A DNA stretch of 39,463 nt from the IMG/VR virus record IMGVR_UViG_2875722834_000003, positions 1 through 39,463 of that record; one strand, 5' to 3'. Position 1 is the stretch's first letter. Every line of letters begins with the position of its first letter. A program made the position numbers and the translations under genes. Under the pieces are notes generated by a model. That model ran no database searches. It saw only the letters and a program-made list of their open reading frames with translations, and had not been told where the DNA came from. This stretch comes from a virus. Taxonomy: Duplodnaviria > Heunggongvirae > Uroviricota > Caudoviricetes. This document shows positions 1-39,463 of this stretch, in pieces.

Positions 1-1284
1 TTACTTCTTCGCCTCTGCAACCACTTTACTACCCACGCCGCGGTTATTGTATTCCCACATGCGGTTGTAGTTAGTGTCATTCAGATTGCGCTGTATTTCG
101 TCGTTATCATCTACGCTGCCGGTATTACCCGCAAACGGACGATTAGAGATCACCGCATCGGCCCACGGTTTAGCCGTGTTAAAACCTTCGTTGATGGCGC
201 TATCACGGATCACCACCTGACCGTTGGTATTGGCATCAACATCCAGCGAGCGGCCCAGTTGCGCCACACCATCACCGAAAGCATTGAAACGGCTGTTTAC
301 GGCGAGGAAACCGTAGTAAATGTTGGACAGCGTAGCCGGTGCAAACACATACGCTTCTTGCTGAGTACGTGAGTTCACCACGCGGAATTCGGTGTTATCG
401 AACACCACTGCGCCGCGACCAGAAACGATATCCACATCCCCTTCAATGTAGCTGTTGGTCACCAGCGTACGCGGCTGACGATTCGTTTCCAGACGGTTCT
501 GCACACCGCTGTTGGTGACAAAGAAGGTGTTCTGACGACCGAGAATGTTAACGTTGTTAATCTGTACCTGGTCACCATCAGTACGCAGTGCCACCGCCGG
601 ATGGTTACCTGCATCTACGCTATCGCCCAGCGTGTTTTCGATGGTCAGATTTTGCAGTTGCAGGCCATTGTTTTGTGACCAGAAGACCGCAGAGCAGAGA
701 ACACCGATACTGTCGCTGCGTTTGCTCTGGCAGCTATCGTACATATACCACGCTGGTTTACCTGGCATATATTTGCCGCGCGGGTTGACGTCGTGACGCC
801 AGTCGGCAGGGCTCATGCCACCATCAAGGGAAAGCCCAATCTTCACATCAATCGGTTTTTCACCTGTACCGTACAGAGTAATTCCACCCGGAGCGGCAGG
901 GACATATACCGTTCCCTGATACTCACCAGGCATCACGGCAATATACTGGCGCTTGTTGGTACGCTTGATAATTGCCGCATCTACCGCCGCCTGAATCGTG
1001 GTATGCGTTACACCTTGAGTGCCCGCCGGGCCGACAACAAAGTCAGGTTGCGCAGGCAGGGTAATCGGGGAAGGATTCCACGCTGCAGCACCTGGTGTCA
1101 GGGATGCAAAATAGTGTTGAGCATCGAAATTCTGCGCTTCTTTTGCCGACAGAATCGGGCGAGAAGAGGTACCAGGCGCGGTTTGATCAGAAGGACGTTG
1201 ATCGGGCGGGGTTGAGCTACAGGCGGTCAGCGTCACGCCAAAAGCCAATGCCAGCGCCAGACGGGAAACTGAAAATGTGTTCAC
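1..1284 (-). CDS. ybhC: Host outer-membrane lipoprotein YbhC (pectinesterase-family putative acyl-CoA thioesterase)
   Basis: ORF-track 427 aa with GTG start at 1282-1284 and stop at 1-3; N-terminal lipoprotein signal ending LTAC; recalled identity to E. coli YbhC, the gene next to attB-lambda. From memory, not searched. Confidence 0.8.
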   Translation of the reverse strand: MNTFSVSRLALALAFGVTLTACSSTPPDQRPSDQTAPGTSSRPILSAKEAQNFDAQHYFASLTPGAAAWNPSPITLPAQPDFVVGPAGTQGVTHTTIQAAVDAAIIKRTNKRQYIAVMPGEYQGTVYVPAAPGGITLYGTGEKPIDVKIGLSLDGGMSPADWRHDVNPRGKYMPGKPAWYMYDSCQSKRSDSIGVLCSAVFWSQNNGLQLQNLTIENTLGDSVDAGNHPAVALRTDGDQVQINNVNILGRQNTFFVTNSGVQNRLETNRQPRTLVTNSYIEGDVDIVSGRGAVVFDNTEFRVVNSRTQQEAYVFAPATLSNIYYGFLAVNSRFNAFGDGVAQLGRSLDVDANTNGQVVIRDSAINEGFNTAKPWADAVISNRPFAGNTGSVDDNDEIQRNLNDTNYNRMWEYNNRGVGSKVVAEAKK

Positions 1285-1320
1285 AGGTTGCTCCGGGCTA
1301 TGAAATAGAAAAATGAATCC

Positions 1321-1440
1321 GTTGAAGCCTGCTTTTTTATACTAAGTTGGCATTATAAAAAAGCATTGCTTATCAATTTGTTGCAACGAACAGGTCACTA
1401 TCAGTCAAAATAAAATCATTATTTGATTTCAATTTTGTCC
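1321..1440. other. attL of lambda type: host B arm, 15-bp core, phage P' arm
   Basis: Core GCTTTTTTATACTAA at 1331-1345 read directly; upstream GTTGAAGCCT matches the bacterial B arm; downstream sequence matches the lambda P' arm (IHF-like TATCAATTTGTTG about 1371-1383; arm-type repeats CAGGTCACTA, TCAGTCAAAA, TAAAATCATT at 1391-1420) and runs into int. Confidence 0.9.
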
Positions 1441-2489
1441 CACTCCCTGCCTCTGTCATCACGATACTGTGATGCCATGGTGTCCGACTTATGCCCGAGA
1501 AGATGTTGAGCAAACTTATCGCTTATCTGCTTCTCATAGAGTCTTGCAGACAAACTGCGCAACTCGTGAAAGGTAGGCGGATCCCCTTCGAAGGAAAGAC
1601 CTGATGCTTTTCGTGCGCGCATAAAATACCTTGATACTGTGCCGGATGAAAGCGGTTCGCGACGAGTAGATGCAATTATGGTTTCTCCGCCAAGAATCTC
1701 TTTGCATTTATCAAGTGTTTCCTTCATTGATATTCCGAGAGCATCAACATGCAATGCTGTTGGGATGGCAATTTTTACGCCTGTTTTGCTTTGCTCGACA
1801 TAAAGATATCCATCTACGATATCAGACCACTTCATTTCGCATAAATCACCAACTCGTTGCCCGGTAACAACAGCCAGTTCCATTGCAAGTCTGAGCCAAC
1901 ATGGTGATGATTCTGCTGCTTGATAAATTTTCAGGTATTCGTCAGCCGTAAGTCTTGATCTCCTTACCTCTGATTTTGCTGCGCGAGTGGCAGCGACAGG
2001 GTTTGTTGTTATATGGCCTTCAGCTATTGCCTCTCGGAATGCATCGCTCAGTGTTGATCTGATTAACTTGGCTGACGCCGCCTTGCCCTCGTCTATGTAT
2101 CCATTGAGCATTGCCGCAATTTCTTTTGTGGTGATGTCTTCAAGTGGAGCATCAGGCAGACCCCTCCTTATTGCTTTAATTTTGCTCATGTAATTTATGA
2201 GTGTCTTCTGCTTGATTCCTCTGCTGGCCAGGATTTTTTCGTAGCGATCAAGCCATGAATGTAACGTAACGGAATTATCACTGTTGATTCTCGCTGTCAG
2301 AGGCTTGTGTTTGTGTCCTGAAAATAACTCAATGTTGGCCTGTATAGCTTCAGTGATTGCGATTCGCCTGTCTCTGCCTAATCCAAACTCTTTACCCGTC
2401 CTTGGGTCCCTGTAGCAGTAATATCCATTGTTTCTTATATAAAGGTTAGGGGGTAAATCCCGGCGCTCATGACTTCGCCTTCTTCCCAT
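1419..2489 (-). CDS. int: Integrase, tyrosine recombinase (lambda Int)
   Basis: 356 aa, MGRRRSHERRDLPPNLYIRNNGYYCYRDPRTGKEF..., recalled as essentially identical to lambda Int; overlaps xis and abuts the P' arm as in lambda. Confidence 0.95.
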   Translation of the reverse strand: MGRRRSHERRDLPPNLYIRNNGYYCYRDPRTGKEFGLGRDRRIAITEAIQANIELFSGHKHKPLTARINSDNSVTLHSWLDRYEKILASRGIKQKTLINYMSKIKAIRRGLPDAPLEDITTKEIAAMLNGYIDEGKAASAKLIRSTLSDAFREAIAEGHITTNPVAATRAAKSEVRRSRLTADEYLKIYQAAESSPCWLRLAMELAVVTGQRVGDLCEMKWSDIVDGYLYVEQSKTGVKIAIPTALHVDALGISMKETLDKCKEILGGETIIASTRREPLSSGTVSRYFMRARKASGLSFEGDPPTFHELRSLSARLYEKQISDKFAQHLLGHKSDTMASQYRDDRGREWDKIEIK

Positions 2490-2685
2490 TTCTGATCCTC
2501 TTCAAAAGGCTACCTGTTACTGGTCGATTTAAGTCAACCTTTACCGCTGATTCGTGGAACAGATACTCTCTTCCATCCTTAACCGGAGGTGGGAATATCC
2601 TGCATTCCCGAACCCATCGACGAACTGTTTCAAGGCTTCTTGGACGTCGCTGGCGTGCGTTCCACTCCTGAAGTGTCAAGTACAT
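2467..2685 (-). CDS. xis: Excisionase (lambda Xis)
   Basis: 72 aa MYLTLQEWNARQRRPRSLETVRRWVRECRIFPPPVKDGREYLFHESAVKVDLNRP..., matches recalled lambda Xis; 23-nt overlap with int start. Confidence 0.9.
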   Translation of the reverse strand: MYLTLQEWNARQRRPRSLETVRRWVRECRIFPPPVKDGREYLFHESAVKVDLNRPVTGSLLKRIRNGKKAKS

Positions 2686-2710
2686 CGCAAAGTCTCCGCA
2701 ATTACACGCA

Positions 2711-2733
2711 AGAAAAAACCGCCATCAGGCGGC
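2711..2733 (-). terminator. Intrinsic terminator (leftward transcription) between orf55 and xis
   Basis: Minus-strand RNA forms CCGCC-UGAU-GGCGG followed by UUUUUUCUU (plus strand AGAAAAAACCGCCATCAGGCGG). Confidence 0.5.
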
Positions 2734-2892
2734 TTGGTGTTCTTTCAGTTCTTCAATTCGAATATTGGTTACGTCTGCATGTGCTATCTGCGCCCACAGC
2801 ATCCAGTGGTCATAGCAGTCGCTGATGTTCTCGGCTTCGATAACTCTGTTGAATGGTTCTCCATTCCATTCACCTGTGACTCGGAAGTGCAT
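2725..2892 (-). CDS. Hypothetical small protein (55 aa) upstream of xis
   Basis: Not in ORF track (under 60 aa). ATG at 2890-2892 preceded by GGAGATGATAA; translation MHFRVTGEWNGEPFNRVIEAENISDCYDHWMLWAQIAHADVTNIRIEELKEHQAA; stop lies inside the terminator loop. Confidence 0.45.
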   Translation of the reverse strand: MHFRVTGEWNGEPFNRVIEAENISDCYDHWMLWAQIAHADVTNIRIEELKEHQAA

Positions 2893-2930
2893 TTATCATC
2901 TCCATAAAACAAAACTCGCCGTAGCGAGTT

Positions 2931-2960
2931 CAGATAAAAGAAATCCCCGCGAGTGCGAGG
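2931..2960 (-). terminator. Intrinsic terminator (leftward) downstream of the 249-aa gene
   Basis: Minus-strand RNA CCUCGC-ACUC-GCGGGG followed by AUUUCUUUUAU; same hairpin motif recurs at 18364-18382. Confidence 0.45.
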
Positions 2961-2992
2961 ACTGTTATTCACCTTTGACGGCAAGTTGCAGG

Positions 2993-3742
2993 TTAGCCAC
3001 GGTTAACCTCCTGCCGCGGCGCTGCTGGCAGCGATTTAATCCAAGCGGCTGCCAGAAGACGACTCCACGCATCCTTAGAATCCTCAGCGCCGTAATCAAT
3101 AATCGAATCGAATTCGTCTAGAATGGCTATCGTAGGCTCAACCGGCACCATCACCCAACCATCTGGAATCACCGGAGAGTTGCCACCCTGAACAGTAGGC
3201 ATATCCGGACCTTTGCGAATCGCCCTGGCAAGATCGATTGGGTCGTCGTACAACCAGTCACCTGTTTGCGGATGATTGGCTTCTGCCAATTGTGCAGCCC
3301 ACTCCAGGCCGTCTTTGTGTCCTTGCAGATAGTCCAGCGGTAACTCATCACTATTACTTACAGGTTCGGCCTGAAGCATGGCGGCGCGATAGGCGTTCCA
3401 GCCGACAGCTTTTCCGTGTTCAAACGCGCTGTCAAAGTCATCATCAATTTCCATCGCAGCGGGCACAGATACCGGCGCTGGCGGGGCGGTGTAAAGCGGC
3501 GTTACTTCTCGCAGCGGGTCGGCATAAGCATTGCCACTATCGAAGCTGACGTTGTTTTTTGCGCCGCCGCCTGACAGCAGCCACGCCACCGGCTCCTGCT
3601 CCATGCCAGCCGTCAGCGCTTCCAGTGCGATTTTGAAGATTTGCGCATCGAGTTGCGCTTCTTCAAAATCAGGGTAATGGGTTGTTACCGCAAGACGGCG
3701 CTCAAGCTTCTCAATCAACTGCTCTTTCGTAAATTCAGCCAT
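2993..3742 (-). CDS. Hypothetical strongly acidic early-left protein (249 aa)
   Basis: ORF track; ATG start at 3740-3742. By my residue count about 42 Asp/Glu against 18 Lys/Arg. No family recognised. Confidence 0.6.
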   Translation of the reverse strand: MAEFTKEQLIEKLERRLAVTTHYPDFEEAQLDAQIFKIALEALTAGMEQEPVAWLLSGGGAKNNVSFDSGNAYADPLREVTPLYTAPPAPVSVPAAMEIDDDFDSAFEHGKAVGWNAYRAAMLQAEPVSNSDELPLDYLQGHKDGLEWAAQLAEANHPQTGDWLYDDPIDLARAIRKGPDMPTVQGGNSPVIPDGWVMVPVEPTIAILDEFDSIIDYGAEDSKDAWSRLLAAAWIKSLPAAPRQEVNRG

Positions 3743-3746
3743 ATCC

Positions 3747-4118
3747 CTACTCCCCCTTGATGCCAGCGGCGCTAAGCTTGGTATTCACATCACCTTCAAA
3801 AATAGGCAGTACACCAATTGCAGCGGCCCAGTTTTTAGCTAACTCAGGGTCAGATGTCTCGTCGGTGTAGTCTGATGCCCGCCACCCAATCAGTCGTTTC
3901 TGACCAGGAATGTCATAGTTTCGCTTCTCCGTTGCTTGCTCTAGAGCATTAAGAAGTGTACGTATTTCATGCTGCTGAGTAGAGATGCTTGAGTCTTTGG
4001 CTTCCAGCTCATCAAGCAGCGCCAGCACATCCCGAGTGGGGACCATAAAGTTCGGCATGAAGTTATCTTTTGCCTTTTCTGCTGTTAGGCGCAGCGCCTG
4101 TTTGTTGAGTGCTGTCAT
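3747..4118 (-). CDS. Hypothetical early-left protein (123 aa)
   Basis: ORF track; start ATG overlaps the stop of the upstream 70-aa ORF (ATGA). Confidence 0.55.
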   Translation of the reverse strand: MTALNKQALRLTAEKAKDNFMPNFMVPTRDVLALLDELEAKDSSISTQQHEIRTLLNALEQATEKRNYDIPGQKRLIGWRASDYTDETSDPELAKNWAAAIGVLPIFEGDVNTKLSAAGIKGE

Positions 4119-4327
4119 TGGGCTGCTCCTTGGCTCTCGACTGCGCCATCCAGCAGAAACACACAGTCATTTTTGTGTTCGGCACATGACCAGAAAACCT
4201 CATCATCGCCACGAAAAATATCTACCTGCACCGTGGTTTTATATTTAGCCACTGCACCGCAACGACATTTCGCGGAAGTGTTTTTCTTTTTAGACAAGAC
4301 ACCTTCAACTCTCGGATATTTTCTCAT
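4115..4327 (-). CDS. Hypothetical small Cys/His-containing protein (70 aa)
   Basis: ORF track; motif CRCG ... WSCAEHKNDC suggests possible metal binding; ATGA coupling with both neighbours. Confidence 0.5.
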   Translation of the reverse strand: MRKYPRVEGVLSKKKNTSAKCRCGAVAKYKTTVQVDIFRGDDEVFWSCAEHKNDCVFLLDGAVESQGAAQ

Positions 4328-4989
4328 AGCGAGGCTCCTTTGCGAAGCTGGGCGGCGATATCTTCGAGAACGCCATCAGAGAATGAGCGGTCAAAATCGC
4401 CTTCCGGCGCATTAGCCATAAACTCAGTAGAGGTAATAATCATCCTGGCAATATCCGCGGCGTTCTTTGCAGTATCATCAATAAAACCAGCTTCCCAGGC
4501 AGCCAGCATTCTGTTCGCCACAAAGTAAGCTCCCTCCTTGCGTGCTTCAGTCTTCACTTCAGCCAGGAAAGCGTCGGTGGCCGGGGTTTTGTTATCTGAC
4601 TCCAGCCACTGGTTGTAGTAATAATCGAACATGCCAGTAGGATAACCACATCCGCTGTGCACGTGGTCTTTCATAGCAGAACCACACATGCAGTAGTCAT
4701 TGTCAGTATTACTAATGATGTCGATAAGTTGCTGTGTCCGTTGCTTCAACATCGCATTCTCCGCCGCCAGCGCAGAAAACTTCTCGTGCGCCAACTTAAC
4801 GGCTGCATCTGCCTGCTTAATTGACTCAATCGCTTTCTGGTGGTCTTCGTACAGAGCCGAAATCTTGGCCTCCGCTTCAGCAAATTTACGCACCAGATAT
4901 TCAGCGTTTGTTTCGTTAACCTTTAAATCACATGGGATGCATTTACCTTTCAGAAAACCATCCATCTCAATTAGTGACATTTGTTTCAT
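4324..4989 (-). CDS. Ead/Ea22-like early protein (coiled-coil N-half, Cys/His-rich C-half)
   Basis: ORF track 4324..5007; I prefer the internal ATG at 4987-4989 (MKQMSLIEM..., 221 aa) because it has a GGAG-rich leader and overlaps the stop of an upstream small ORF. Family assignment is recalled, not searched. Confidence 0.5.
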
Positions 4990-5150
4990 TTCTTCCCACT
5001 CCACCACATAGCATTCAGATATTTGTTGTCATTAACAGAACCGAAACTCTTTCTCTTAAGCAACTCCTCTCTCGATGGCATTTGCTTTACGCGTTGGCGA
5101 ATAATCATTTCTGCCGGAAGAATGCCGGGATTGTATGCAAGTCCTCTCAT
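4986..5150 (-). CDS. Hypothetical small protein (54 aa), translationally coupled
   Basis: Not in ORF track. ATG 5148-5150 overlaps the stop of the upstream gene (ATGA); its own stop overlaps the ATG at 4989; translation [54 protein letters not shown]. Confidence 0.35.
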
Positions 5151-5437
5151 GATTTACTCTCAACGAACTGGTCAACGGCCATGCTAAGTGACACACCTAA
5201 AGTCTCGATATGCTGCTGAATATCCTGTAGCGTCCGCGCTTGAGATAACAGAATTTCACGGTTGCATAACTCTTTAACCAGATGCTCAAACTTGCTGTAA
5301 TAACCTATACGGCTTAGTGTTTCTTTCCCTGCATTCTCACCTTCTTTGATAATTCCTCTTTCGCTAAGAATCAGATCGTGTTTGGTTCCGGTGATAACGT
5401 ATTTGCCGAGGTCGATGTTTAGCTTCATTGTTTTCAT
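5147..5437 (-). CDS. Hypothetical early-left protein (96 aa from [11 protein letters not shown])
   Basis: ORF track 5147..5470; start moved to ATG at 5435-5437, which has GAGGAA 6 nt upstream and avoids the 23-nt overlap with the Abc2-like gene. Confidence 0.5.
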
Positions 5438-5447
5438 TGTTAATTCC

Positions 5448-5744
5448 TCAGTCATTACTGATAGCGCCATAACGTGAGCGGTAATTACGCAGGCGCGGGT
5501 CGATATATTCAGGGAGTTTGTCTATTGTCGCTTTTCGCAACGGTCTCATTGCTGTTTCGTTTGTTCGGTCCTTCTCATCTTTTAACGCGAGTTGTATATC
5601 GCGTCGGTACATCCGTTCTGCTTTTGTTTCTGGTGGCAGATCAATAAACGTGTCGAAAATGTTTTTGATATTTTCCAGCACCTCCGCCTTGGAGCTACCG
5701 GAGCAGTTGCGCGGGTCATCCGCACCATACAGAGGCGCTGGCAT
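5448..5744 (-). CDS. abc2: Abc2-like anti-RecBCD protein (P22 type)
   Basis: 98 aa MPAPLYGADDPRNCSGSSKAEVLENIKNIFDTFIDLPPETKAERMYRRD...; position downstream of erf as in P22; identity recalled, not searched. Confidence 0.45.
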   Translation of the reverse strand: MPAPLYGADDPRNCSGSSKAEVLENIKNIFDTFIDLPPETKAERMYRRDIQLALKDEKDRTNETAMRPLRKATIDKLPEYIDPRLRNYRSRYGAISND

Positions 5745-5767
5745 AATGGGAGCCTTATTTTGCTAAT

Positions 5768-6148
5768 CTAGAAGGGAATTGAATCGTCGTATTCAGGATG
5801 ATTTTGATGATTGCTACTTTGCTGCTGGCCATTTCCTGAAGCTGCAAATCCAATCTTTGCATTCAGTAATTCAAGAGTGATTGATTGACCATTTTGCCCC
5901 TGATAAACATCAACCCTGATGTTTTCTCCGGTAATTTCCACAATGCCTCCTTCAACCAGAACGCTACGGTAGTAATCCGCTTGCGCTCCCGGCTTGGCAA
6001 ATACAACGGCGCTGTAGTTTGTCCATTCTTTCTTTTTTGTCTGGCGATCGTAATACTGAACGCCAGCACGGATGTTGAATCCGATATTTTCCCCGGCCTG
6101 AAACTCTCTTGCGGGCTTGTTTAGTCTTACAGTAATCGAATGTGCCAT
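5768..6148 (-). CDS. Phage single-strand DNA-binding protein-like
   Basis: ORF track 5768..6238; start taken at ATG 6146-6148 (MAHSITVRL..., 126 aa) with AAGGAG upstream; C-terminal tail ...YDDSIPF resembles the SSB DDDIPF tip; overlaps erf stop by 1 nt. Confidence 0.5.
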   Translation of the reverse strand: MAHSITVRLNKPAREFQAGENIGFNIRAGVQYYDRQTKKKEWTNYSAVVFAKPGAQADYYRSVLVEGGIVEITGENIRVDVYQGQNGQSITLELLNAKIGFAASGNGQQQSSNHQNHPEYDDSIPF

Positions 6149-6753
6149 TAAGCAGCAGCTCCTTCTAATTCGTCTCGTCTGATGTTGTAAACGTCCTGCG
6201 CTTTGTGCTGCTCCGGTGTGCCTTCGAGCATCTTCCACGCTTTGGCGAACGCCTGTTTAAGCTCTTCCACGGTGTTTTTCTGCATTGCTGCGTCAGTGAA
6301 TGCTTTTAGAACCTGTTCAGGTGTAGGTGATGGTTTTGATTGCTTTGCTACTGCGTTCTGCTGATGTTTATGCTCGTCTGTATCTGCATCTTTCGCATCA
6401 TCAATGCCGAACAAACCATTGAGGCAATACTTGCGTGCATAAGAGCTTGTAGCTCCCGTAACTTGTGCAGAATCCATCCCTTTCTTGCTTTCTTCCTCTC
6501 GTGCAAGAGCGGTTGCCGTATGGCTGTTTTCGCCATCGGTAATAGTTGCCGTGGCTTTCACGTAATACCGATCACCAATCAGCACAACTTCATCGCTGAT
6601 TGATAAAAACAGGCCATTCAGTAGCGGCTTAACGCCTTCAAGAATGTCTTCGCAGCTTCTGTATTTATATTTACCGAATGAGTTGTACTGATTCTTTGGC
6701 GCGTTCAGATTCTCCTGAATAGCTGCCAGTCTTGCGTAAAATTCTTTGCTCAT
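6148..6753 (-). CDS. erf: Erf, essential recombination function single-strand annealing protein (P22 type)
   Basis: ORF track 6148..6783 begins at TTG; ATG at 6751-6753 gives MSKEFYARLAAIQENLNAPKNQYNSFGKYKYRSCEDILEGVKPLL..., matching recalled P22 Erf. Confidence 0.8.
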   Translation of the reverse strand: MSKEFYARLAAIQENLNAPKNQYNSFGKYKYRSCEDILEGVKPLLNGLFLSISDEVVLIGDRYYVKATATITDGENSHTATALAREEESKKGMDSAQVTGATSSYARKYCLNGLFGIDDAKDADTDEHKHQQNAVAKQSKPSPTPEQVLKAFTDAAMQKNTVEELKQAFAKAWKMLEGTPEQHKAQDVYNIRRDELEGAAA

Positions 6754-6854
6754 ATGTTTGTTCTCAGAATGGACATTCCCCAAGGAAATAACGCTGGTTT
6801 AATACTTCGACTCGGGACAAATTAAGGCATACCCGCATTCCTTCGCGGTCGCCA

Positions 6855-7013
6855 TTATGGCGATACCAGAGAGCTTTCTGCGTGTACATGCGTCTCTGTA
6901 ACTTGCTCTCCTTCACTGTGGTTGCAAGTGACATGAATATCTCCTTCGTTACCGATTAATTCTTTCATATGACGAATGAATTCCTCGTCTGACCAGTTAT
7001 CTGTAAAACTCAT
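6855..7013 (-). CDS. Hypothetical small protein (52 aa) in the kil/arf position
   Basis: ORF track 6855..7043 starts at TTG; ATG at 7011-7013 (MSFTDNWSDEEFIRHMKELIG...) overlaps the cIII-like stop (ATGA). Confidence 0.4.
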   Translation of the reverse strand: MSFTDNWSDEEFIRHMKELIGNEGDIHVTCNHSEGEQVTETHVHAESSLVSP

Positions 7014-7180
7014 GGACGGCCTTGTTGTTTCAAAATATCCCAAAGCTTTTCGAGCAAACTTTTCATTCTTGGTTGTTTAAAGTCTGCTCCGGTTAAAATA
7101 TTTTTTCGTGAATGCTGTACCGATAAAATCGGGTTGAAAGGGCGAACCGATGCCGCCCCTGCAATAGCGAACTGTTGCAT
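7010..7180 (-). CDS. cIII: CIII-like protein (FtsH inhibitor family)
   Basis: ORF track 7010..7285; ATG at 7178-7180 with AAGGAG 7 nt upstream; 56 aa MQQFAIAGAASVRPFNPILSVQHSRKNILTGADFKQPRMKSLLEKLWDILKQQGRP, same pattern as lambda CIII (MQYAIAG...LLERI...ILNQPG). Confidence 0.6.
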   Translation of the reverse strand: MQQFAIAGAASVRPFNPILSVQHSRKNILTGADFKQPRMKSLLEKLWDILKQQGRP

Positions 7181-7374
7181 AGGATGCTCCTTCTTTTTGA
7201 TTGCATAACGAAAACGCCTCGAGTGAAGCGTTATTGGTATGCATATAAAAAGGCCCTCACACTGGAGGGCAAAGAAGATTTCCAATAATCAGAACAAGTC
7301 GGCTCCTGTTTAGTTACGAGCGACATTGCTCCGTGTATTCACTCGTTGGAATGAATACACAGTGCTTATTCATA

Positions 7375-7845
7375 CTAATAAAACACCCAATTTTCTGTTT
7401 CTTGGTTGTGTCCAAAGTTATATTCAATATCTGGTGTTGATGTATCAATATTCTTCATCCCATCAACAAGAGTTGATACAACAGCCAAATCTTGTTTGAT
7501 TCTCATCAAATGGTATTTCTTCCGGCGCAATAAACTTTCAATGGCAAGTTTCTTCGTCGGGAACGCAAAAGATCTTTCTGCATTTTTTGCTACTTTCTTA
7601 ATTGCATATCTATTTCTCCTTTGTTTCCATTCCTGTAACCACTGATTTGGTGCTGGTTTAAAATTAACAATCCAATGCGCAGGAACCAACCATGCATAAT
7701 GCTCTGTCTGATGAAAAGCTATATATTGAAGTGCGAATATTTTGATTCCATCTTCTTCAACTGTCGCTTGGAATCTCCAGAAAACAGGCATTCCATCATG
7801 TTCAGTTTCTGATTCAGGAAAAGGTACGCTCCATGATTTTGTCAT
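7375..7845 (-). CDS. Hypothetical AT-rich accessory protein (156 aa), unknown function
   Basis: ORF track; ATG 7843-7845 with GAGGTGAGAT leader; sampled lines are about 33-37 % GC against about 48 % in N; no motif recognised. Confidence 0.65.
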   Translation of the reverse strand: MTKSWSVPFPESETEHDGMPVFWRFQATVEEDGIKIFALQYIAFHQTEHYAWLVPAHWIVNFKPAPNQWLQEWKQRRNRYAIKKVAKNAERSFAFPTKKLAIESLLRRKKYHLMRIKQDLAVVSTLVDGMKNIDTSTPDIEYNFGHNQETENWVFY

Positions 7846-7925
7846 ATCTCACCTCAAATAATTCAGTGCAGTGTTTATTCTGTTGTTTATGCCAAAAGAA
7901 GGCCGACTATGCGGCATAATTATTT

Positions 7926-8114
7926 TTAACTATCATCAATACATGGCACTTTATTCCAGTCGATATCGTTTTTATTGTCGTCCCACATGTCTTTGTTTTT
8001 GTATTTCTCGCTACATCCTAGGCAAATGTTGTATGGCCTACCGATAAGGTTTAACGAAATACGTTGCATTTCATTTGATTCAAACATGTATCCACAGAAC
8101 TGACATTTATGCAT
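7926..8114 (-). CDS. Hypothetical zinc-ribbon-like small protein (62 aa), immediately downstream of N
   Basis: ORF track; ATG 8112-8114 with GGGGTGAGAT leader, 3 nt after the N stop; CxxC (CQFCG) and CxxC (CLGCS) pairs; AT-rich. Confidence 0.6.
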   Translation of the reverse strand: MHKCQFCGYMFESNEMQRISLNLIGRPYNICLGCSEKYKNKDMWDDNKNDIDWNKVPCIDDS

Positions 8115-8117
8115 ATC

Positions 8118-8450
8118 TCACCCCTCATACAGTAGCTTACTGCCTGATTTCATTTTCTGGCGACCAACACAAGTCACCCCCATTTCACTGCGTGGCTTGC
8201 TGTACCATGTGCGCTGATTCTTGCGCTCAATACGTTGCAGGTTGCTTTCAATCTGTTCGTGGTATTCAGCCAGCACCGTAAGGTCTATCGGATTCAGTGC
8301 GCTTTCTACTCGTGATTTCGGTTTGCGATTCAGCGAGAGAATAGGGCGGTTAACTGGTTTTGCGCTTACCCCAACCAACAGGGGATTTGCTGCTTTCCAT
8401 TGAGCCTGTTTCTCTGCGCGACGTTCGCGGCGGCGTGTTTGTGCATCCAT
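8118..8450 (-). CDS. N: Antitermination protein N (lambda type)
   Basis: ORF track 8118..8540 starts at TTG; ATG at 8448-8450 gives MDAQTRRRERRAEKQAQWKAANPLLVGVSAKPVNRPILSLNRKPKSRVESALNPIDLTVLAEYH..., matching recalled lambda N; AGGAGA leader. Confidence 0.9.
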   Translation of the reverse strand: MDAQTRRRERRAEKQAQWKAANPLLVGVSAKPVNRPILSLNRKPKSRVESALNPIDLTVLAEYHEQIESNLQRIERKNQRTWYSKPRSEMGVTCVGRQKMKSGSKLLYEG

Positions 8451-8560
8451 CTGGATTCTCCTGTCAGTTAGCTTTGAGTAACGCGCCGTGATGCTTATCT
8501 CCACGGTTGCTGTCTTGCAGCTGCATTTCGCGCTACTCAAAGCTTTCTGCTTTGAATGCT

Positions 8561-8591
8561 GCCCTTCTTCAGGGCTTAATTTTTAAGAGCC
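8561..8591 (-). promoter_or_regulatory. nutL (boxA plus boxB) for N antitermination
   Basis: Minus-strand RNA reads GCUCUUAAAAAUUAAGCCCUGAAGAAGGGC; boxB GCCCTGAAGAAGGGC is the reverse complement of 8561-8575. Confidence 0.85.
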
Positions 8592-8630
8592 TCACCTTCA
8601 TGGTGGTCAGTGCGTCCTGCTGATGGCTAG

Positions 8631-8695
8631 ATAATCACAAATTGTGTTCGTGCTGTCAACACGAAATGTGATTGTTTTTATCACAACACGTGTTT
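8631..8695 (-). promoter_or_regulatory. pL promoter with three oL operators (non-lambda specificity)
   Basis: Minus-strand -35 TTGACA (8654-8659) and -10 GATTAT (8631-8636), 17-bp spacer; 17-bp pseudo-palindromes at 8633-8649, 8658-8674 and 8679-8695 with half-site AA(T/A)CACA. Confidence 0.6.
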
Positions 8696-8734
8696 TCATT
8701 GATTTTTAAGGTAATTTAATTTTCTTTGGGCAAC

Positions 8735-8766
8735 AAAAAACCCGCCGAAGCGGGTTTGATGTTTTT
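8735..8766. terminator. Bidirectional intrinsic terminator between cI and pL
   Basis: AAACCCGC-CGAA-GCGGGTTT perfect hairpin flanked by an A-run and a T-run; in the leftward sense it ends the cI transcript. Confidence 0.6.
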
Positions 8767-8780
8767 AAGTGGCGGGTATA

Positions 8781-9422
8781 TCAGGAGAATTTCATCATCA
8801 TCTGCACTGCTACGCCGATTATCTTGCAGTTGCCGTCGATTGGGATCAACGGATAGGCAGGGTTAAGCCCTTTCAGGTATTTGTTACCGCCATCAATGAT
8901 TAGCTTCTTGAACGTGGCTTCATTAGCATCTGTCAGCTTCGCAACTACCAGGCTTCCATTAACGGCTTCCTTTCCAGTGTCGAACAGAACCAGCATACCC
9001 TCAGGAACGCTAAGGCCGGTAGGAGCTGTCATTGAGTCGCCCTGAACCCTGAGCCAGAAGGCGTCACCGACAACGTGACAATCTGATTCATACCACTCAT
9101 CCACTGCCTGAGGGTTGTACGGCTCTACGGCCTCACTCCATGCACCTGCGCTAACCCAGCTAATCAACGGAAACTTTTCCCCTGGCTTGTATTGTCCCTG
9201 ATAGTTGTCGCCAAAAAGCAGTTCTGCCGGAGCGACGCCCAAAGCTTTAGCTATTACCTCTGCGTCATCAACACTAACGCTTCTGGTTCCTGATTCATAG
9301 TTGCCGATCCGAGATTGTGAAGCCCAGCCGCAAAGCTCCGCCAGAGCCTTCTGTGAAAGCCCTTTATCTTCCCGTAATCGCTTGATACGCGCGGCGATAG
9401 TTTCTGTTCTGTTCATGCGCAT
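8781..9422 (-). CDS. cI: CI-type prophage repressor (HTH plus S24 LexA-like autopeptidase)
   Basis: 213 aa; N-terminal HTH (LSQKALAELCGWASQSRIGNYESG); Ala-Gly cleavage site (VSAGAW); Ser in GDSM and Lys in VVAKL; divergent from cro across three operators. Confidence 0.85.
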   Translation of the reverse strand: MRMNRTETIAARIKRLREDKGLSQKALAELCGWASQSRIGNYESGTRSVSVDDAEVIAKALGVAPAELLFGDNYQGQYKPGEKFPLISWVSAGAWSEAVEPYNPQAVDEWYESDCHVVGDAFWLRVQGDSMTAPTGLSVPEGMLVLFDTGKEAVNGSLVVAKLTDANEATFKKLIIDGGNKYLKGLNPAYPLIPIDGNCKIIGVAVQMMMKFS

Positions 9423-9426
9423 TTTA

Positions 9427-9493
9427 TATCACATTCCGTGGTTTAAGGCTTTACACGATTTGTGTTGACTATCAATCACAATATGTGTTTAAT
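9427..9493. promoter_or_regulatory. oR operators (three) with divergent pRM/pR
   Basis: 17-bp sites at 9427-9443, 9451-9467 and 9474-9490, spaced 24 and 23 bp, same half-site family as oL; -35 TTGACT at 9465-9470, candidate -10 TTTAAT at 9488-9493 for pR. Confidence 0.6.
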
Positions 9494-9526
9494 AAAGACT
9501 GAGTGAACTAGCTCTTAAGGAAACCT

Positions 9527-9742
9527 ATGAACAACATTGCCAACGAACGGAAAAAACTTGGCATCACTCAATCTGCGTTAGCAGGCGCGTGTGGCTGGAA
9601 CCAGTCCCGCTTAGCTAACTACGAGTCAGGTATCCGGACTCCAGATTTAGAGTCGTGCCGTCGCCTGGTAAAGGCGCTGAATAAATTGGGGAGCAAGACA
9701 ACGCTAGATGGCTTGTTCCCGCCGGAACACAAAGCCGCTTAA
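9527..9742 (+). CDS. cro: Cro-like HTH repressor
   Basis: 71 aa MNNIANERKKLGITQSALAGACGWNQSRLANYESG...; AAGGAAA Shine-Dalgarno; first gene rightward of oR. Confidence 0.8.
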   Translation: MNNIANERKKLGITQSALAGACGWNQSRLANYESGIRTPDLESCRRLVKALNKLGSKTTLDGLFPPEHKAA

Positions 9743-9750
9743 GACATTCC

Positions 9751-9782
9751 CGCTCTTACACATCCCCGCCCTGAAAAAGGGC
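9751..9782 (+). promoter_or_regulatory. nutR (boxA CGCTCTTA, boxB GCCCTGAAAAAGGGC)
   Basis: boxA at 9751-9758 and boxB at 9768-9782, directly after the cro stop; matches recalled lambda nutR. Confidence 0.85.
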
Positions 9783-9861
9783 ATCAAATTAAACCACACC
9801 TATGGTGTATGCATTTATTTGCATACATTCAATCAATTGTTATCTAAGGAAATACTTACAT

Positions 9862-10140
9862 ATGCAACTTACAAGTACTCGCAAGAAAGCGAATGCAATT
9901 ACAAGCAACATCCTGAATCGAATTGCTGTACGTGGTCAGCGAAAGGTTGCCGACGCGTTAGGGATTAATGAATCGCAAATTTCGCGATGGAAAGACAGCT
10001 TCATCCCCAAAATGGGAATGCTTCTTGCTGTTCTTGAATGGGGTGTTGAAGACGAGGAGTTGGCGGAACTGGCTAAGAAAGTAGCCAGAATGCTGACAAA
10101 AGAAAAAGCCCCGAAGAACGGCGAATTCTTCGAGGCCTGA
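9862..10140 (+). CDS. cII: CII-type transcriptional activator (P22 C1-like)
   Basis: ORF track 9802..10140; ATG at 9862 behind the lambda-like leader TAAGGAAATACTTACAT; MQLTSTRKKANAITSNILNRIAVRGQRKVADALGINESQISRWK... aligns with lambda CII. Confidence 0.8.
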   Translation: MQLTSTRKKANAITSNILNRIAVRGQRKVADALGINESQISRWKDSFIPKMGMLLAVLEWGVEDEELAELAKKVARMLTKEKAPKNGEFFEA

Positions 10141-37055: not shown

Positions 37056-38543
37056 TTATTTTTTGTATACCAGTATTGTCATATCTCCCTTATTTAAAAC
37101 TTTTTCAGGCTTCCCATTTTTAGATGAAATGGCGTTGATACACGACTGTATGTCTCCGCACTTTTCATGCCCATCAATAGCGATAAAGTATTTTCCATTT
37201 GATGGCATTGCTTCTTTACTGTACCAACTTCTCATGGTTTGATATCGAGGTGAGTTAAAATCAATAGACCCATTTTCAGAAATATCTACAGGTGCGATAA
37301 CTACCTCCCCATTGGAAGCCCAGAATGTAGTTAGGCTTTTATTCCAGTAGTCACCATAACCATAACTCAAATTATTATCTAGTAAAAACGCAGAATAATC
37401 CTTTATCTCCCGTTCAGAATCTTCGTAAGTTTTATTTCCAAAGTTAAAGGTTATAGCGCTCGACAGTACAAATAAAATGCAAATGGCATATGCTAGCCAT
37501 TTTGTCATTCTGCTATGAGCAACTGAATATACTATGAACACAAAAGGTGCAATATTCACAAAAAAGCGAGGTATAGGCTGGCTTGGGTCTGGATTGCTTA
37601 CTGTATAAGCTGAGATAATTCCAGCGGCGGAAAGTAGGGATAGCATAAAAAAATAACTAGAACTATCTTTCCTCAGAATCCCTGTTATGCATACATAACA
37701 AAATAACCCCCCCACAAGAATAAATGAGGCTATATATAGGGAGTGCTGCCTGAGGAAGAAAATGTTAAACATTTCACCAACCGTGAGAATCAGTTGATGT
37801 GCGTTCCCCTGCATTGTAACAAAATCAACAATATTAAAAGGTTGAGAGTCGATTCCCATTAATTTTGGTATTGTATGATTCAGAGCAATACCATAAAAAA
37901 TAGCAAGGAGAATGAAATTTACTAATTTTGTTTCTTTTCTGATGACAAAAATGAGTTCAGTAATCAGAATTGGAAGGAGATAAGTAGGCGCAGCCCACAT
38001 ATCTGAGGAACAAACTAATAACCCAAAAATGCCAACTATGGCATATGATAAAAGCCCTTGATCTCTATGTGCTTTCATTGCCATAAGGCATGTTAGCATT
38101 CCAAAAGCAACAGTAGAGTAGTGAGCAAATGGATGCTGAACAAATCCATCTGTCCAATATATGTGCGGCAAAGCAGCAAGAGGCACTGCGCAAACTAGTA
38201 ATGAACTTCGCTTGTTTAATTTCTTTGATATTGTAGATGCGATAATTATGACGCTGAATGCAAAAAAAGCAGATCCAAATATCAGCATTGGAGCGCCATA
38301 ACTTCCTAATATCAAATAAAACAGAAAGTATACAGGGTACAATGTAAAGTACCAGTTATCCGGTGTCGGGTTCCAATCAGTAAGAGACTTGAAACCGTGT
38401 TCCTTAAACTCAAGCCATACAACAGGACCATTTACTCCATCAGCATCTATTCTGAAGTATATATAAGAAAGATAAGAGATAGATATTGCGCATAAGAGCA
38501 ATATTACAATCTCTATTGATTTTTTATTTATTAGGTGTTTCAT
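37056..38543 (-). CDS. gtrC: GtrC-like serotype-specific O-antigen glucosyltransferase (polytopic membrane protein)
   Basis: 495 aa, multiple hydrophobic segments plus a C-terminal soluble domain; directly downstream of gtrB with ATGA overlap; about 27-33 % GC in sampled lines. Confidence 0.6.
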
Positions 38544-39463
38544 TTTTTATCCTTGTTACTTAAAATATATCTAGGCCTGTTCTTGGATTCGGTGTAAATC
38601 CTCCCGATGTACTCACCAAGCACCCCAATGCCAATAAGTTGTACGCCACCAAGAAACAGAATAGAAACCAGCAATGAGGGGTAGCCTCGCACCGGATTGC
38701 CAAAGGCGATAGTGTCTATAATCATCCATGCACCATAAATGAACGACAGGCCTGCTACCAACAATCCAATATAAGTCCACATGCGCAGAGGGAAGGTAGA
38801 GAAACTGGTTATCCCCTCAAGGGCAAGGTTCCATAACTTCCAGCCATTGAATTTTGAATCACCGGCAATCCTTTCAGCCCTGGTGTATTCAACGATATCA
38901 GTGTTCCCGCCAACCCAGCTAAGAATGCCTTTCATAAAGAGGTTGCGCTCAGGAAGAAGCTTGATGTTTTCCACCACCGCTCGGGACATCAGGCGGAAAT
39001 CACCTACATTCTCCTCAATTTTAGGGTTGCTGATTTTGTTGTGCAGCTTGTAGAACCACTCAGCGGTCTTCCGCTTAAGTCTTCCATCAGTTGATCTGTC
39101 TGTTCGTTTCGCCAGTACCATTTCAGCGCCAGCCTGCCACTTATCGATCAGATGAGGAATGACGTTAATAGGATCCTGCAGGTCTACATCGATAGGGATT
39201 ACGGCTTCGCCTGTCGCATGGTCTAGCCCTGCAAATAAAGCAGGCTCCTTGCCGAAGTTGCGGGTGAATGACAACGCAACAACTAGAGGGTCTGCAATTG
39301 CCAGAGATCTGATTATTGACTCTGTAGCATCCTTGCTGCCGTCGTTGATGAAGACTATTTCAACCTCATATTGCTGAAGATCTTCAAACTCGCGCACTGT
39401 TTTATAGAAAATTGGAATCGCGTCTTCTTCATTGAAGACAGGAACGACCAGAGATATCTTCAT
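38540..39463 (-). CDS. gtrB: GtrB bactoprenol glucosyltransferase (GT2 family)
   Basis: 307 aa [26 protein letters not shown]...; GT2 motifs (INDGSKD, DVDLQDP) and two C-terminal TM helices; start codon is the last three bases of the window. Confidence 0.85.

Follow-up and report, generated by a model that had tools for sequence, protein, structure and literature searches.

The gene string downstream of abc2

The DNA analyzed here (referred to as the window; 39,463 nucleotides) corresponds to CP025739.1 sequence and comes from a P22-like prophage of this E. coli genome integrated beside ybhC. Pfam, PHROGs, and public gene calls place abc2, ssb, erf, xis, and int around the region, which is the early-left lambdoid accessory ("ea") segment downstream of abc2; the initial annotation of this DNA had likewise described early-left ORFs of unknown function. 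Direct reading and the ORF list reproduced in full the lengths and coordinates given there for five minus-strand ORFs joined by ATGA stop/start overlaps at 5150-5147, 4989-4986, 4327-4324, and 4118-4115. The chain extends one gene further, to a 249-aa ORF that begins 4 nt past the 123-aa ORF. The features are as follows, with the genes of the string numbered g1 to g6.

5448..5744, minus strand: abc2, anti-RecBCD protein 2 (Pfam PF11043 at 118 bits, phrog_656)
5147..5437, minus strand: g1, 96 aa, DUF5405 family (PF17399, phrog_154)
4986..5150, minus strand: g2, 54 aa, DUF2737 family (PF10930, phrog_1117)
4324..4989, minus strand: g3, 221 aa, modular EaE/HkaH-type protein, by homology to P22 EaE and HK620 HkaH
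4639..4695, minus strand: Cys/His cluster in g3 (residues 99-117), an optional insert module
4115..4327, minus strand: g4, 70 aa, small protein of an unnamed family with a conserved Cys/His pattern
3747..4118, minus strand: g5, 123 aa, Ead/Ea22-type head, helical middle, C-terminal KGE (phrog_19867)
2993..3742, minus strand: g6, 249 aa, next gene of the packed string after a 4-nt gap (ORF list, public gene calls)
2912..2963, minus strand: two terminator-like hairpins just 3' of g6 (consensus scan)

Immediately upstream of the chain, abc2 is a conserved anchor, present in 62 of 68 DUF2737-anchored loci. The two start sites that had been revised against the longest-ORF track (5470 to 5437, and GTG 5007 to ATG 4989) hold: both match the public gene calls of CP025739.1, pair with the anti-SD at -6.1 and -6.0 kcal/mol, respectively (the longer starts score +0.6 and +0.4), and agree with homology breakpoints against relatives and with N-terminal conservation. 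All six genes appear at identical lengths in the public record. This includes the 54-aa ORF, previously taken to be unannotated, which is a member of Pfam DUF2737.

A consensus scan returned 10 terminator-like sites in the region (3.9 expected) but no convincing terminator inside the chain on the coding strand, and the hairpins at 2912..2963 are where this tightly packed part of the leftward operon likely ends. Promoter-like sites between 2400 and 6300 showed no excess (3 versus 3.9 in shuffles), and Rfam identified no RNA family over positions 1 to 10000 of the window. Scans of the six proteins with PADLOC and NCBIfam brought no meaningful match, and the PHROG matches of g6 are all of unknown function.

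Families and modules in the chain

The g1 protein passes the Pfam DUF5405 cut-off marginally (25.0 bits against 21.6) and matches phrog_154 at E 4e-32. The label of that PHROG, "replication initiation protein", is a name only and putative. Homology to relatives lacking g1 ends at 5434 and restarts at 5151, so CATGA flanks the g1 cassette at either end; g1 is an optional, exact one-ORF cassette inserted between abc2 and DUF2737. The g2 protein scores 93.2 bits against DUF2737 (cut-off 25; 48 of 53 profile positions covered) and matches phrog_1117 at E 1e-35; its family was found in 249 phage records, and our literature search on DUF2737 yielded one incidental mention only. Purifying selection acts on g1, g2, and g4 (pN/pS 0.06, 0.36 over 98 distinct relatives, and 0.25, respectively); for g5, the comparison offered a single ungapped full-length relative, too few for an estimate.

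The modules of g3 comprise a head (residues 1-36), a long helix (~26-94), the Cys/His insert, a linker (135-145), and a helical C-terminal domain. Its C-terminal 149 residues match P22 EaE (E 2e-56), and HK620 HkaH aligns with the head included (E 7e-33). By homology and by its position directly after DUF2737, common to P22, HK620, and ES18, g3 is assigned as the EaE/HkaH homologue. An identical 221-aa protein, P0020, is present in E. coli. Searches with g3 gave no Pfam match, no Ead_Ea22 (PF13935) hit at E<=0.1, and no alignment to lambda Ea22; in relatives that do contain PF13935, this body is joined to another N-terminal module. The initial annotation had described a coiled-coil Ead/Ea22-like protein with a Cys/His cluster. 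The cluster indeed lies in the 221-aa protein, but by its N-terminus of the Ea22/EaD type, it is the 123-aa protein that is Ead/Ea22-like. Residues C100, C102, H109, H111, and C114 of g3 are kept wherever the Cys/His module occurs, whereas P22 EaE and other relatives have something else in place of the entire module; metal binding is a putative property of this optional insert. The N-terminal CxxC (CIPC) was rejected as part of a metal site, its second Cys being R or S in most relatives.

The small protein g4 was already noted to contain Cys. Across 46 diverse family members, the pattern C-x(1,2)-C ... C-x2-[H/C] accompanies an FRGDDE motif; C21, C23, and C48 never vary and position 51 holds either H or C, giving four conserved putative metal ligands in two knuckles. 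On this pattern, we classify g4 as a zinc-type small protein. Its family comprises 175 clusters at 50% identity (E<=1e-3), with no match in Pfam, PHROGs, NCBIfam, or PADLOC. Similarity to lambda Ea8.5, a known zinc-finger exo-xis protein, was looked for and not found. Sequence searches of the PDB with g1, g3, and the g4 family profile returned chance-level matches only (e.g., glyoxylate reductase and antibody heavy chains), leaving g4 without a Pfam or PDB relative; single family members gave weak zinc-ribbon matches only. In the AF2 model of g3 (mean pLDDT 60.6), the 26-94 helix reaches 68-87 per 10-residue block and the Cys/His insert is of low confidence; this model (pLDDT 61) and that of g4 (mean pLDDT 52) are too uncertain for a fold search.

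The g5 protein, which begins MTALNKQALR, matches phrog_19867 at E 6e-52. It is Ead/Ea22-like by its N-terminus, which can be aligned with lambda Ea22 (E 1e-4) and with P22 EaD (E 1e-3); its PF13935 score is under the Pfam threshold (15.5 bits, cut-off 27).

Region type, gene families, and 4-nt overlap chains have been known for years in P22, HK620, and ES18. The P22 ea region (orf56, eaE, orf-45, eaF, eaD, eaI, eaA; GenBank L06296), HK620 hkaI-hkaE, and ES18 gp45-gp40 lie at the same place of the leftward early operon, downstream of abc2, with the same order as here: [DUF5405]-DUF2737-EaE-like-small ORF-Ead-like-larger protein. Chains of 4-nt overlaps are annotated in all three (eaE/orf45/eaF/eaD, hkaI/H/G, and gp45-41), and P22 orf56, HK620 HkaI, and ES18 gp44 are the counterparts of g2. 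P22 EaE lacks the additional Cys/His insert of g3, and g4 is missing from the corresponding position in all three phages. The lambda exo-xis region is likewise a pL-transcribed, early, nonessential accessory stretch, running from the recombination genes to xis, in which Ea22 has a pro-lysogenic effect (PMC10834534, PMC7093339). Both g3 and g5 follow the plan of lambda Ea22, in which a coiled coil connects a short N-terminal part to a C-terminal domain that varies (PMC10834534, PMC7093339). However, no similarity between g3 and lambda Ea22 was detectable, g5 stays under the Ead_Ea22 threshold although it shares the N-terminal motif and the terminal KGE, and lambda exo-xis genes overlap less tightly than the genes here.

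Translation signals and partners at the joints

Of ~50 junctions between same-strand genes in the window, 11 are ATGA overlaps of 4 nt. Around relatives, NTGA joints of 4 nt account for 66-100% of contexts at 7 of 10 junction positions; at the others, the share is 51% (DUF2737 start), 34% (after g5), and none (g1 start). The ATGA run is not due to chance, yet it is not unusual for such a region. The joint has a recurrent anatomy: the ribosome-binding site (SD) of each gene is written in the final codons of the one before it, e.g., CGC AAA GGA G (R-K-G) or AAG GGG GAG (K-G-E), and the stop TGA is shared with the ATG or GTG of the next gene. An SD core is embedded in 71% of 780 distinct NTGA joints, and CGCAAAGGAG is nearly invariant, third codon positions included.

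The SDs of g1 (GAGGA at 5445-5449), g3, g4 (AAGGAG at 4335-4340, -7.9 kcal/mol), g5 (AAGGAG at 4126-4131, -7.7 kcal/mol), and g6 range from -6.0 kcal/mol for g3 to -10.5 kcal/mol for g6, against a window median of -4.1. The K-G-E codons that end g5 make up that of g6, AAGGGGGAG (3750-3758). For g3 and g5, the start region is predicted to be accessible, and for g4 it is about average. Since all but one of the five genes come with a strong SD themselves, coupling need not be obligate. The exception is g2, with a weak SD (-3.1 kcal/mol) and a start region predicted to be mostly paired (P(unpaired) 0.23); thus, true dependence on upstream translation is likely at the g1-g2 joint alone. The g2 family begins with ATGA (Met-Arg) in 106 of 107 relatives, regardless of any gene ending there.

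Neighbors were charted in IMG/VR from the best 80 matches per anchor, with counts that ignore phylogeny. None of 261 loci with at least 2 kb of flank holds all five genes, and a search of 50,697 phage records and 5,426 complete E. coli genomes found none that covers >=80% of positions 3700-5500; the combination is unique to one E. coli genome among the collections searched. The 68 g2-anchored and 66 g1-anchored loci include g4 once and g5 not at all, and the 55 g3-anchored loci include each of them once. Through 4-nt overlaps, 25 gene families follow g3 relatives (101 contexts); 7 families precede g4 relatives (26 contexts) and 23 precede g5 relatives (32 contexts). The RKGxxx tail ends 11 unrelated C-terminal domain families ahead of 38 downstream families. 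The 4-nt NTGA joint is therefore independent of the identity of the neighbor. Other prophages have an identical g4 protein in their nin region, where the joints are again the same. The only stable adjacencies are DUF5405 to DUF2737 and DUF2737 to the first ~36 residues of the EaE-like protein. The former is one-directional, as g2 follows g1 in all 66 g1-anchored loci and g1 is present in only 8 of the 68 g2-anchored ones. Both adjacencies could reflect a real functional pair instead of linkage. Homology breakpoints fall at joints (~4320-4336, 5151-5153, and 5432 in the window) or at linkers within g3.

Probable exchangeable cassettes and competing readings

We read the stretch, with a probability of about 0.7, as a string of exchangeable cassettes in the ea segment of the pL operon of a P22-like prophage and not as one complex. 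DUF5405, DUF2737, the modular EaE-like coiled-coil protein, the small zinc-type protein, the Ead/Ea22-like protein, and the 249-aa protein would each be independently exchangeable. At every joint, a terminating ribosome would reinitiate, and free ribosomes would also initiate, on whichever cassette comes next, so that any combination of cassettes could be expressed from pL. Termination-reinitiation is a plausible mode of coupling at -4 overlaps in general, and 13 of 14 tested pairs were strictly coupled (PMC6728339). We infer reinitiation at the joints of this string, with g1-g2 probably the only one truly dependent on coupling. Short conserved tail-plus-head sequences would then be the sites of cassette exchange between phages. 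By analogy with lambda exo-xis proteins, the products may act separately as early, nonessential modulators of host interaction or of the lysis-lysogeny decision.

The initial annotation had instead seen in the five ORFs an obligately co-translated unit whose products perhaps form a complex. Four consecutive -4 overlaps speak for this, as do the usual strict coupling of such pairs (PMC6728339) and their enrichment for complex subunits: among E. coli gene pairs spaced -8 to +10 nt, 30.4% encode subunits of heteromeric complexes, so a pairwise complex is not dismissible a priori (PMC10666635). Complex-encoding coupled operons also share with this locus the -4 ATGA overlap and an SD inside the upstream gene (PMC6728339, PMC10666635). 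However, such operons keep their partners together, whereas here the partners change freely and the joint stays constant. In the collections searched, the quintet was never found together outside the source genome, every joint is common to many unrelated partners, and g3, g4, and g5 each come with a strong SD, the g3 and g5 starts being predicted to be accessible. Moreover, nonsense codons shorten g2 in several relatives, and the intact downstream gene persists behind them. As the genes occur independently in relatives, the five-gene unit or complex is unsupported, and we regard it as highly improbable.

A smaller unit is unlikely too, albeit clearly less so. DUF2737 and the N-terminal head of g3 would form a coupled two-protein module beside abc2, and g4 would possibly pair with the Ead-type head at the start of g5; swappable effector or targeting parts would be supplied by the variable C-terminal domains. 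In its favor, 88 of 107 contexts keep the g2-g3 joint AGAAATGAAACAAATG, g2 leads through ATGA/GTGA into a head of the EaE or Ead type in 155 of 168 contexts, and residues 1-36 of g3 stay 94-97% identical in relatives in which the remainder is exchanged. Likewise, an Ead-type head, mostly MTALNKQALR, comes next in 13 of 13 contexts of close g4 copies (>=89% identity). Yet DUF2737 precedes two unrelated heads (MKQMSLIE and MSKIDYQALR), its own tail changing to match, as co-inherited linker DNA would; distant g4 homologues (<=81% identity) have wholly different neighbors; and the truncated g2 copies with intact downstream genes count against this module as well. The embedded SD plus a recombination linker account for the conservation of tail and head. 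The overlaps might also be passive by-products of genome compaction, with no role in translation or cassette exchange, a reading that we hold for improbable, though less so than the five-gene complex. Overlaps are indeed common, both in the window and among co-directional pairs of most prokaryotic groups (~15%; PMC6728339), and g2 and g4 start with ATGA merely because their second codon begins with A. Nevertheless, the NTGA share at most examined junction positions is far above the genome-wide rate, the tail SD is conserved at synonymous sites, and homology breakpoints coincide with the joints.

Returning to the cassette reading, we tentatively propose, as a possibility that we ourselves rather doubt, that the tail (last ~8 codons, with the SD), the overlap, and the head (first ~10 codons) are shared recombination linkers, making the ea region a recombinase-free cassette array. 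In a weaker variant, DUF2737 and the EaE-type head would be a genuine two-protein module. Lambdoid phages evolve modularly, as mosaics with joints at gene boundaries. The linker idea is reportedly that of Susskind and Botstein, and comparative studies of HK97, HK022, and HK620 are said to have addressed mosaicism. Our literature search on linkers and gene-boundary joints found nothing directly relevant in the collection it covered; in-frame fusions of the EaE N-terminus have been described in phage epsilon34 (PMC2629481). Breakpoints at gene starts and intragenic linkers, and one head fused in frame to various bodies, are features of mosaic lambdoid phages of which the window is a further example, with no essential difference.

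With all five genes already called in the source genome, these findings have little consequence beyond correct annotation. In mosaic phage accessory regions, an ATGA run is the default joint between exchangeable cassettes and should be taken as a sign of a protein complex only where the partners are jointly conserved. Of residual value are g4, representing a small zinc-type family without a name or model, and the C-terminal R/K-G-x tails, which also serve the following gene as its ribosome-binding site. If the linker proposal is true, the K/RGE end of Ea22 proteins and similar termini would be nucleotide-level signals and not protein features.

A packed gene string in the leftward early operon

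The window is a mosaic P22-like/lambdoid prophage, with Huey, CUS-3, Kapi1 and HK106 as its best phage matches, and the g1-g6 stretch is the "ea" segment of its leftward early operon. A strand reading of 3500-5700 and a mechanical ORF list place minus-strand ATGA stop/start overlaps at 5150-5147, 4989-4986, 4327-4324 and 4118-4115, as the initial annotation had described together with the five ORF lengths. Since g6 begins 4 nt after g5, the packed string is longer than then supposed.

Genes of the string
5448-5744, minus, abc2, ending 10 nt ahead of g1
5147-5437, minus, g1, 96 aa
4986-5150, minus, g2, 54 aa
4324-4989, minus, g3, 221 aa
4115-4327, minus, g4, 70 aa
3747-4118, minus, g5, 123 aa
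2993-3742, minus, g6, 249 aa, starting 4 nt past g5

The two start sites that had been moved relative to the ORF track, g1 at 5437 and g3 at 4989, are right. Their Shine-Dalgarno (SD) pairing amounts to -6.1 and -6.0 kcal/mol, whereas the longer alternatives have none (ATG 5470, +0.6; ATG 5455, -1.5; GTG 5007, +0.4 kcal/mol). Homology of relatives stops precisely at the g1 start, the g3 N-terminus MKQMSLIE is kept among relatives, and public gene calls of the source genome use identical starts for both. The E. coli protein P0020, identical to g3, has its sole recorded locus in E. coli CP025739.1 (GCA_002879735.1), where genes of 98 (abc2), 96, 54 (DUF2737), 221, 70, 123 and 249 aa are called in this order, preceded by erf, an ssb-like gene, an N-like gene (Pfam N36) and the repressor and followed by a 55-aa ORF, excisionase, integrase and the host gene ybhC. 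These calls cover all chain genes; hence, no member is unannotated, including the 54-aa ORF once described so.

Upstream of abc2, the recombination module consists of Erf and a 126-aa SSB-like protein (5771-6148, 6148-6783) joined by a 1-nt TAATG overlap, instead of the erf-abc1 of P22. Three terminator-like hairpins on the minus strand (2942-2963, 2912-2931, 2716-2735) flank a 55-aa ORF (2725-2892) between g6 and xis; at the position matching 2716-2963, P22 has the t'I terminator and eaG. Past the tailspike region, two long minus-strand ORFs (37056-39463) share an ATGA overlap at 38540-38543.

Partners, joints and tails

The overlaps had been taken to imply an obligate five-gene unit and perhaps a complex. 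Co-occurrence was assessed in IMG/VR loci anchored on each of the five genes, 261 of them flanked on either side by 2 kb or more. All five genes occur together in 0/261. The best match to 3700-5500 in 50,697 phage records and 5,426 complete E. coli genomes covers 56% of that stretch, so that none reaches 80%. g2 is present in all 66 g1-anchored loci; among 68 anchored on g2, g1 is found in 8 and a g3-like gene in 51. Across both sets, g4 appears once and g5 is absent; the 55 g3-anchored loci hold g4 once and g5 once, and the exact g5 protein comes from 1 genome only. Neighbours vary too: 25 families follow g3 relatives (101 contexts), 7 precede g4 relatives (26 contexts), 23 precede g5 relatives (32 contexts), and g4 homologues at ≤81% identity have unrelated neighbours. 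Independent occurrence in relatives, named beforehand as what would speak against the unit, was thus looked for and found. Together with promiscuous partners and individual SDs, it makes a single, obligately cotranslated complex of the five proteins highly improbable. Even in E. coli, no more than 30.4% of gene pairs at a spacing of -8 to +10 nt code for subunits of complexes (PMC10666635). The initial interpretation finds partial support: its starts stand and translational coupling at -4 overlaps stays plausible, but its obligate unit or complex does not hold.

The 4-nt NTGA joint (ATGA or GTGA) predominates at most boundaries of the chain genes, regardless of neighbour: it follows the stop of g3 relatives in 98/119 contexts and marks the start of g4 and g5 relatives in 26/26 and 32/35. 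The fetched loci have 780 distinct NTGA joints on the operon strand, 71% of which are preceded by an SD core at 3-13 nt. In the window, SD pairing of g1, g3, g4, g5 and g6 ranges from -6.0 to -10.5 kcal/mol (window gene median, -4.1); start regions are predicted to be accessible in g1, g3 and g5 and about average in g4, with the g6 AUG paired. g2 (4986-5170 with its start region) is the only chain gene combining a weak SD (-3.1 kcal/mol; TGAGAG versus GGAGAG in relatives) with a start region predicted to be mostly paired (P unpaired 0.23 versus a background of 0.42). Where relatives lack g1, g2 follows the abc2 stop immediately and has a GAGGA of its own. Its initial ATGA, read as Met-Arg, is present in 106/107 relatives regardless of any gene ending there. 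Only g2 behind g1 is likely to depend truly on translation of the gene upstream.

Ahead of each joint, a single sequence encodes the C-terminal end of the upstream protein and the SD of the next gene.

Tails doubling as SD of the next gene
3750-3758, minus, K-G-E
4335-4340, minus, R-K-G-A-S-L
4126-4131, minus, Q-G-A-A-Q

The R-K-G-x-x-x tail, CGCAAAGGAG, is almost invariant, third codon positions included, on 11 unrelated C-terminal domain families and ahead of 38 downstream families. The Ead-type head M[ST]x[IL][ND]x[QKR]AL comes after 28 different upstream families, and the g2 tail (MWWSGKK versus MWRKGGNQ) changes together with the following head. g1 is an exact one-ORF cassette: relatives without it are homologous up to 5434 and again from 5151, with CATGA common to both blocks. 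Homology breakpoints fall at joints (~4320-4336, 5151-5153, 5432) and at in-gene linkers (g3 residues ~40, 80 and 144; g5 residue ~15).

Chain proteins and their modules

g1 matches DUF5405 (25.0 bits; cut-off, 21.6) and phrog_154, and g2 matches DUF2737 (93 bits) and phrog_1117. pN/pS values of 0.06 (g1), 0.36 (g2) and 0.25 (g4) denote purifying selection, which makes the 54-aa g2 ORF a real gene. Premature stops leave 18-28 codons of g2 in seven related loci (L047, L067, L068, L124, L128, L134, L137), with an intact downstream gene persisting 74-164 nt further on; some prophages can therefore do without g2.

The Ead/Ea22-like label given initially fits the N-terminus of g5 (E 1e-4 versus lambda Ea22, 1e-3 versus P22 EaD; Ead_Ea22 score under the Pfam threshold), not g3, an EaE/HkaH homologue. 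g3 has no Pfam match; its similarity to P22 EaE covers the C-terminal 149 residues (E 2e-56), and that to HK620 HkaH the first ~48. Its modules, i.e., head 1-36, a variable-length helix, an optional Cys/His insert (the annotated cluster, found at residues 99-117), a conserved 11-residue linker and the C-terminal domain, are each exchanged independently among relatives, and in some of these a true Ead_Ea22 head sits on the shared body. The AF2 model is poor overall (pLDDT 61). A single long helix spans 26-94 (68-87 across 10-residue blocks); the Cys/His loop is of low confidence and predicted to lack secondary structure, and the C-terminal domain is helical.

g4 matched no model in Pfam, PHROGs, NCBIfam or PADLOC. 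Its 19 close clusters and 175 clusters at 50% identity nevertheless argue for a real family, in which C21, C23 and C48 never vary and position 51 holds H or C, a zinc-type ligand pattern; the family also has an FRGDDE motif. Its AF2 model reached pLDDT 52, and no Pfam or PDB relatives were found for its fold. Other E. coli prophages carry an identical protein in their nin region (loci L344 and L346, 2087-3560); there it comes after lambda-P/DnaT-type replication genes and DUF1064 and before an Ead-type protein, joined by 4-nt overlaps as in the window; the cassette thus moves between left and right early operons.

Exchangeable cassettes and known ea regions

The region strings together closely packed cassettes, each exchangeable independently, with NTGA joints and embedded SDs, under protein-coding constraint. 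We give its reading as a cassette array a probability of about 70%. A ribosome terminating at each TGA could reinitiate at the overlapping start, and the SD within the tail would also permit de novo initiation, so that short tail-plus-head linkers may serve at once as translation initiation region and preferred exchange site. The main competing explanation, a genuine two-protein module of g2 and the g3 head, perhaps also of g4 and the g5 head, draws on g2 travelling with the g3 head and close g4 copies with the MTALNKQALR head. Linker exchange alone would account for both linkages, no protein-protein interaction being needed, and such a module seems unlikely. Under the cassette-array reading, each protein would work on its own as an early accessory factor, g3 and g5 as coiled-coil oligomers presenting variable C-terminal domains, like Ea22, and g4 and the g3 Cys/His insert as small metal-binding modules.

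Chains of overlapping ea genes are already known. The same 4-nt overlaps link orf56 (unannotated in L06296), eaE, orf-45, eaF, eaD, eaI and eaA in P22 (L06296), hkaJ(abc2)-hkaI-hkaH-hkaG in HK620 and gp46(abc2)-gp45(DUF5405)-gp44(DUF2737)-gp43(eaE-like)-gp42-gp41(eaD-like) in ES18, and in-frame fusions to the EaE N-terminus were noted in epsilon34 (PMC2629481). The lambda exo-xis region is the putative functional analogue; the proteins it encodes are early and non-essential and influence the choice between lysis and lysogeny, and Ea22, a tetramer, favours lysogeny (PMC10834534, PMC7093339). Its plan of head, coiled coil and variable C-terminal domain is the one seen here. The end of lambda ea22 (locus L332, 2340-2365) reads ATC AAA GGA GAG TGA, an SD-like tail with GTGA followed by ~190 nt without any gene, and looks like a leftover linker.

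Two residual points stand out. One is the unnamed g4 family with its predicted zinc-type ligands. The other is the dual coding/SD role of C-terminal tails. g5 ends in KGE, the terminal motif reported for Ea22 proteins (PMC7093339); as such tails are SD sites, nearly invariant synonymously and borne by unrelated families, the K/RGE end of Ea22 proteins may be a nucleotide-level signal.
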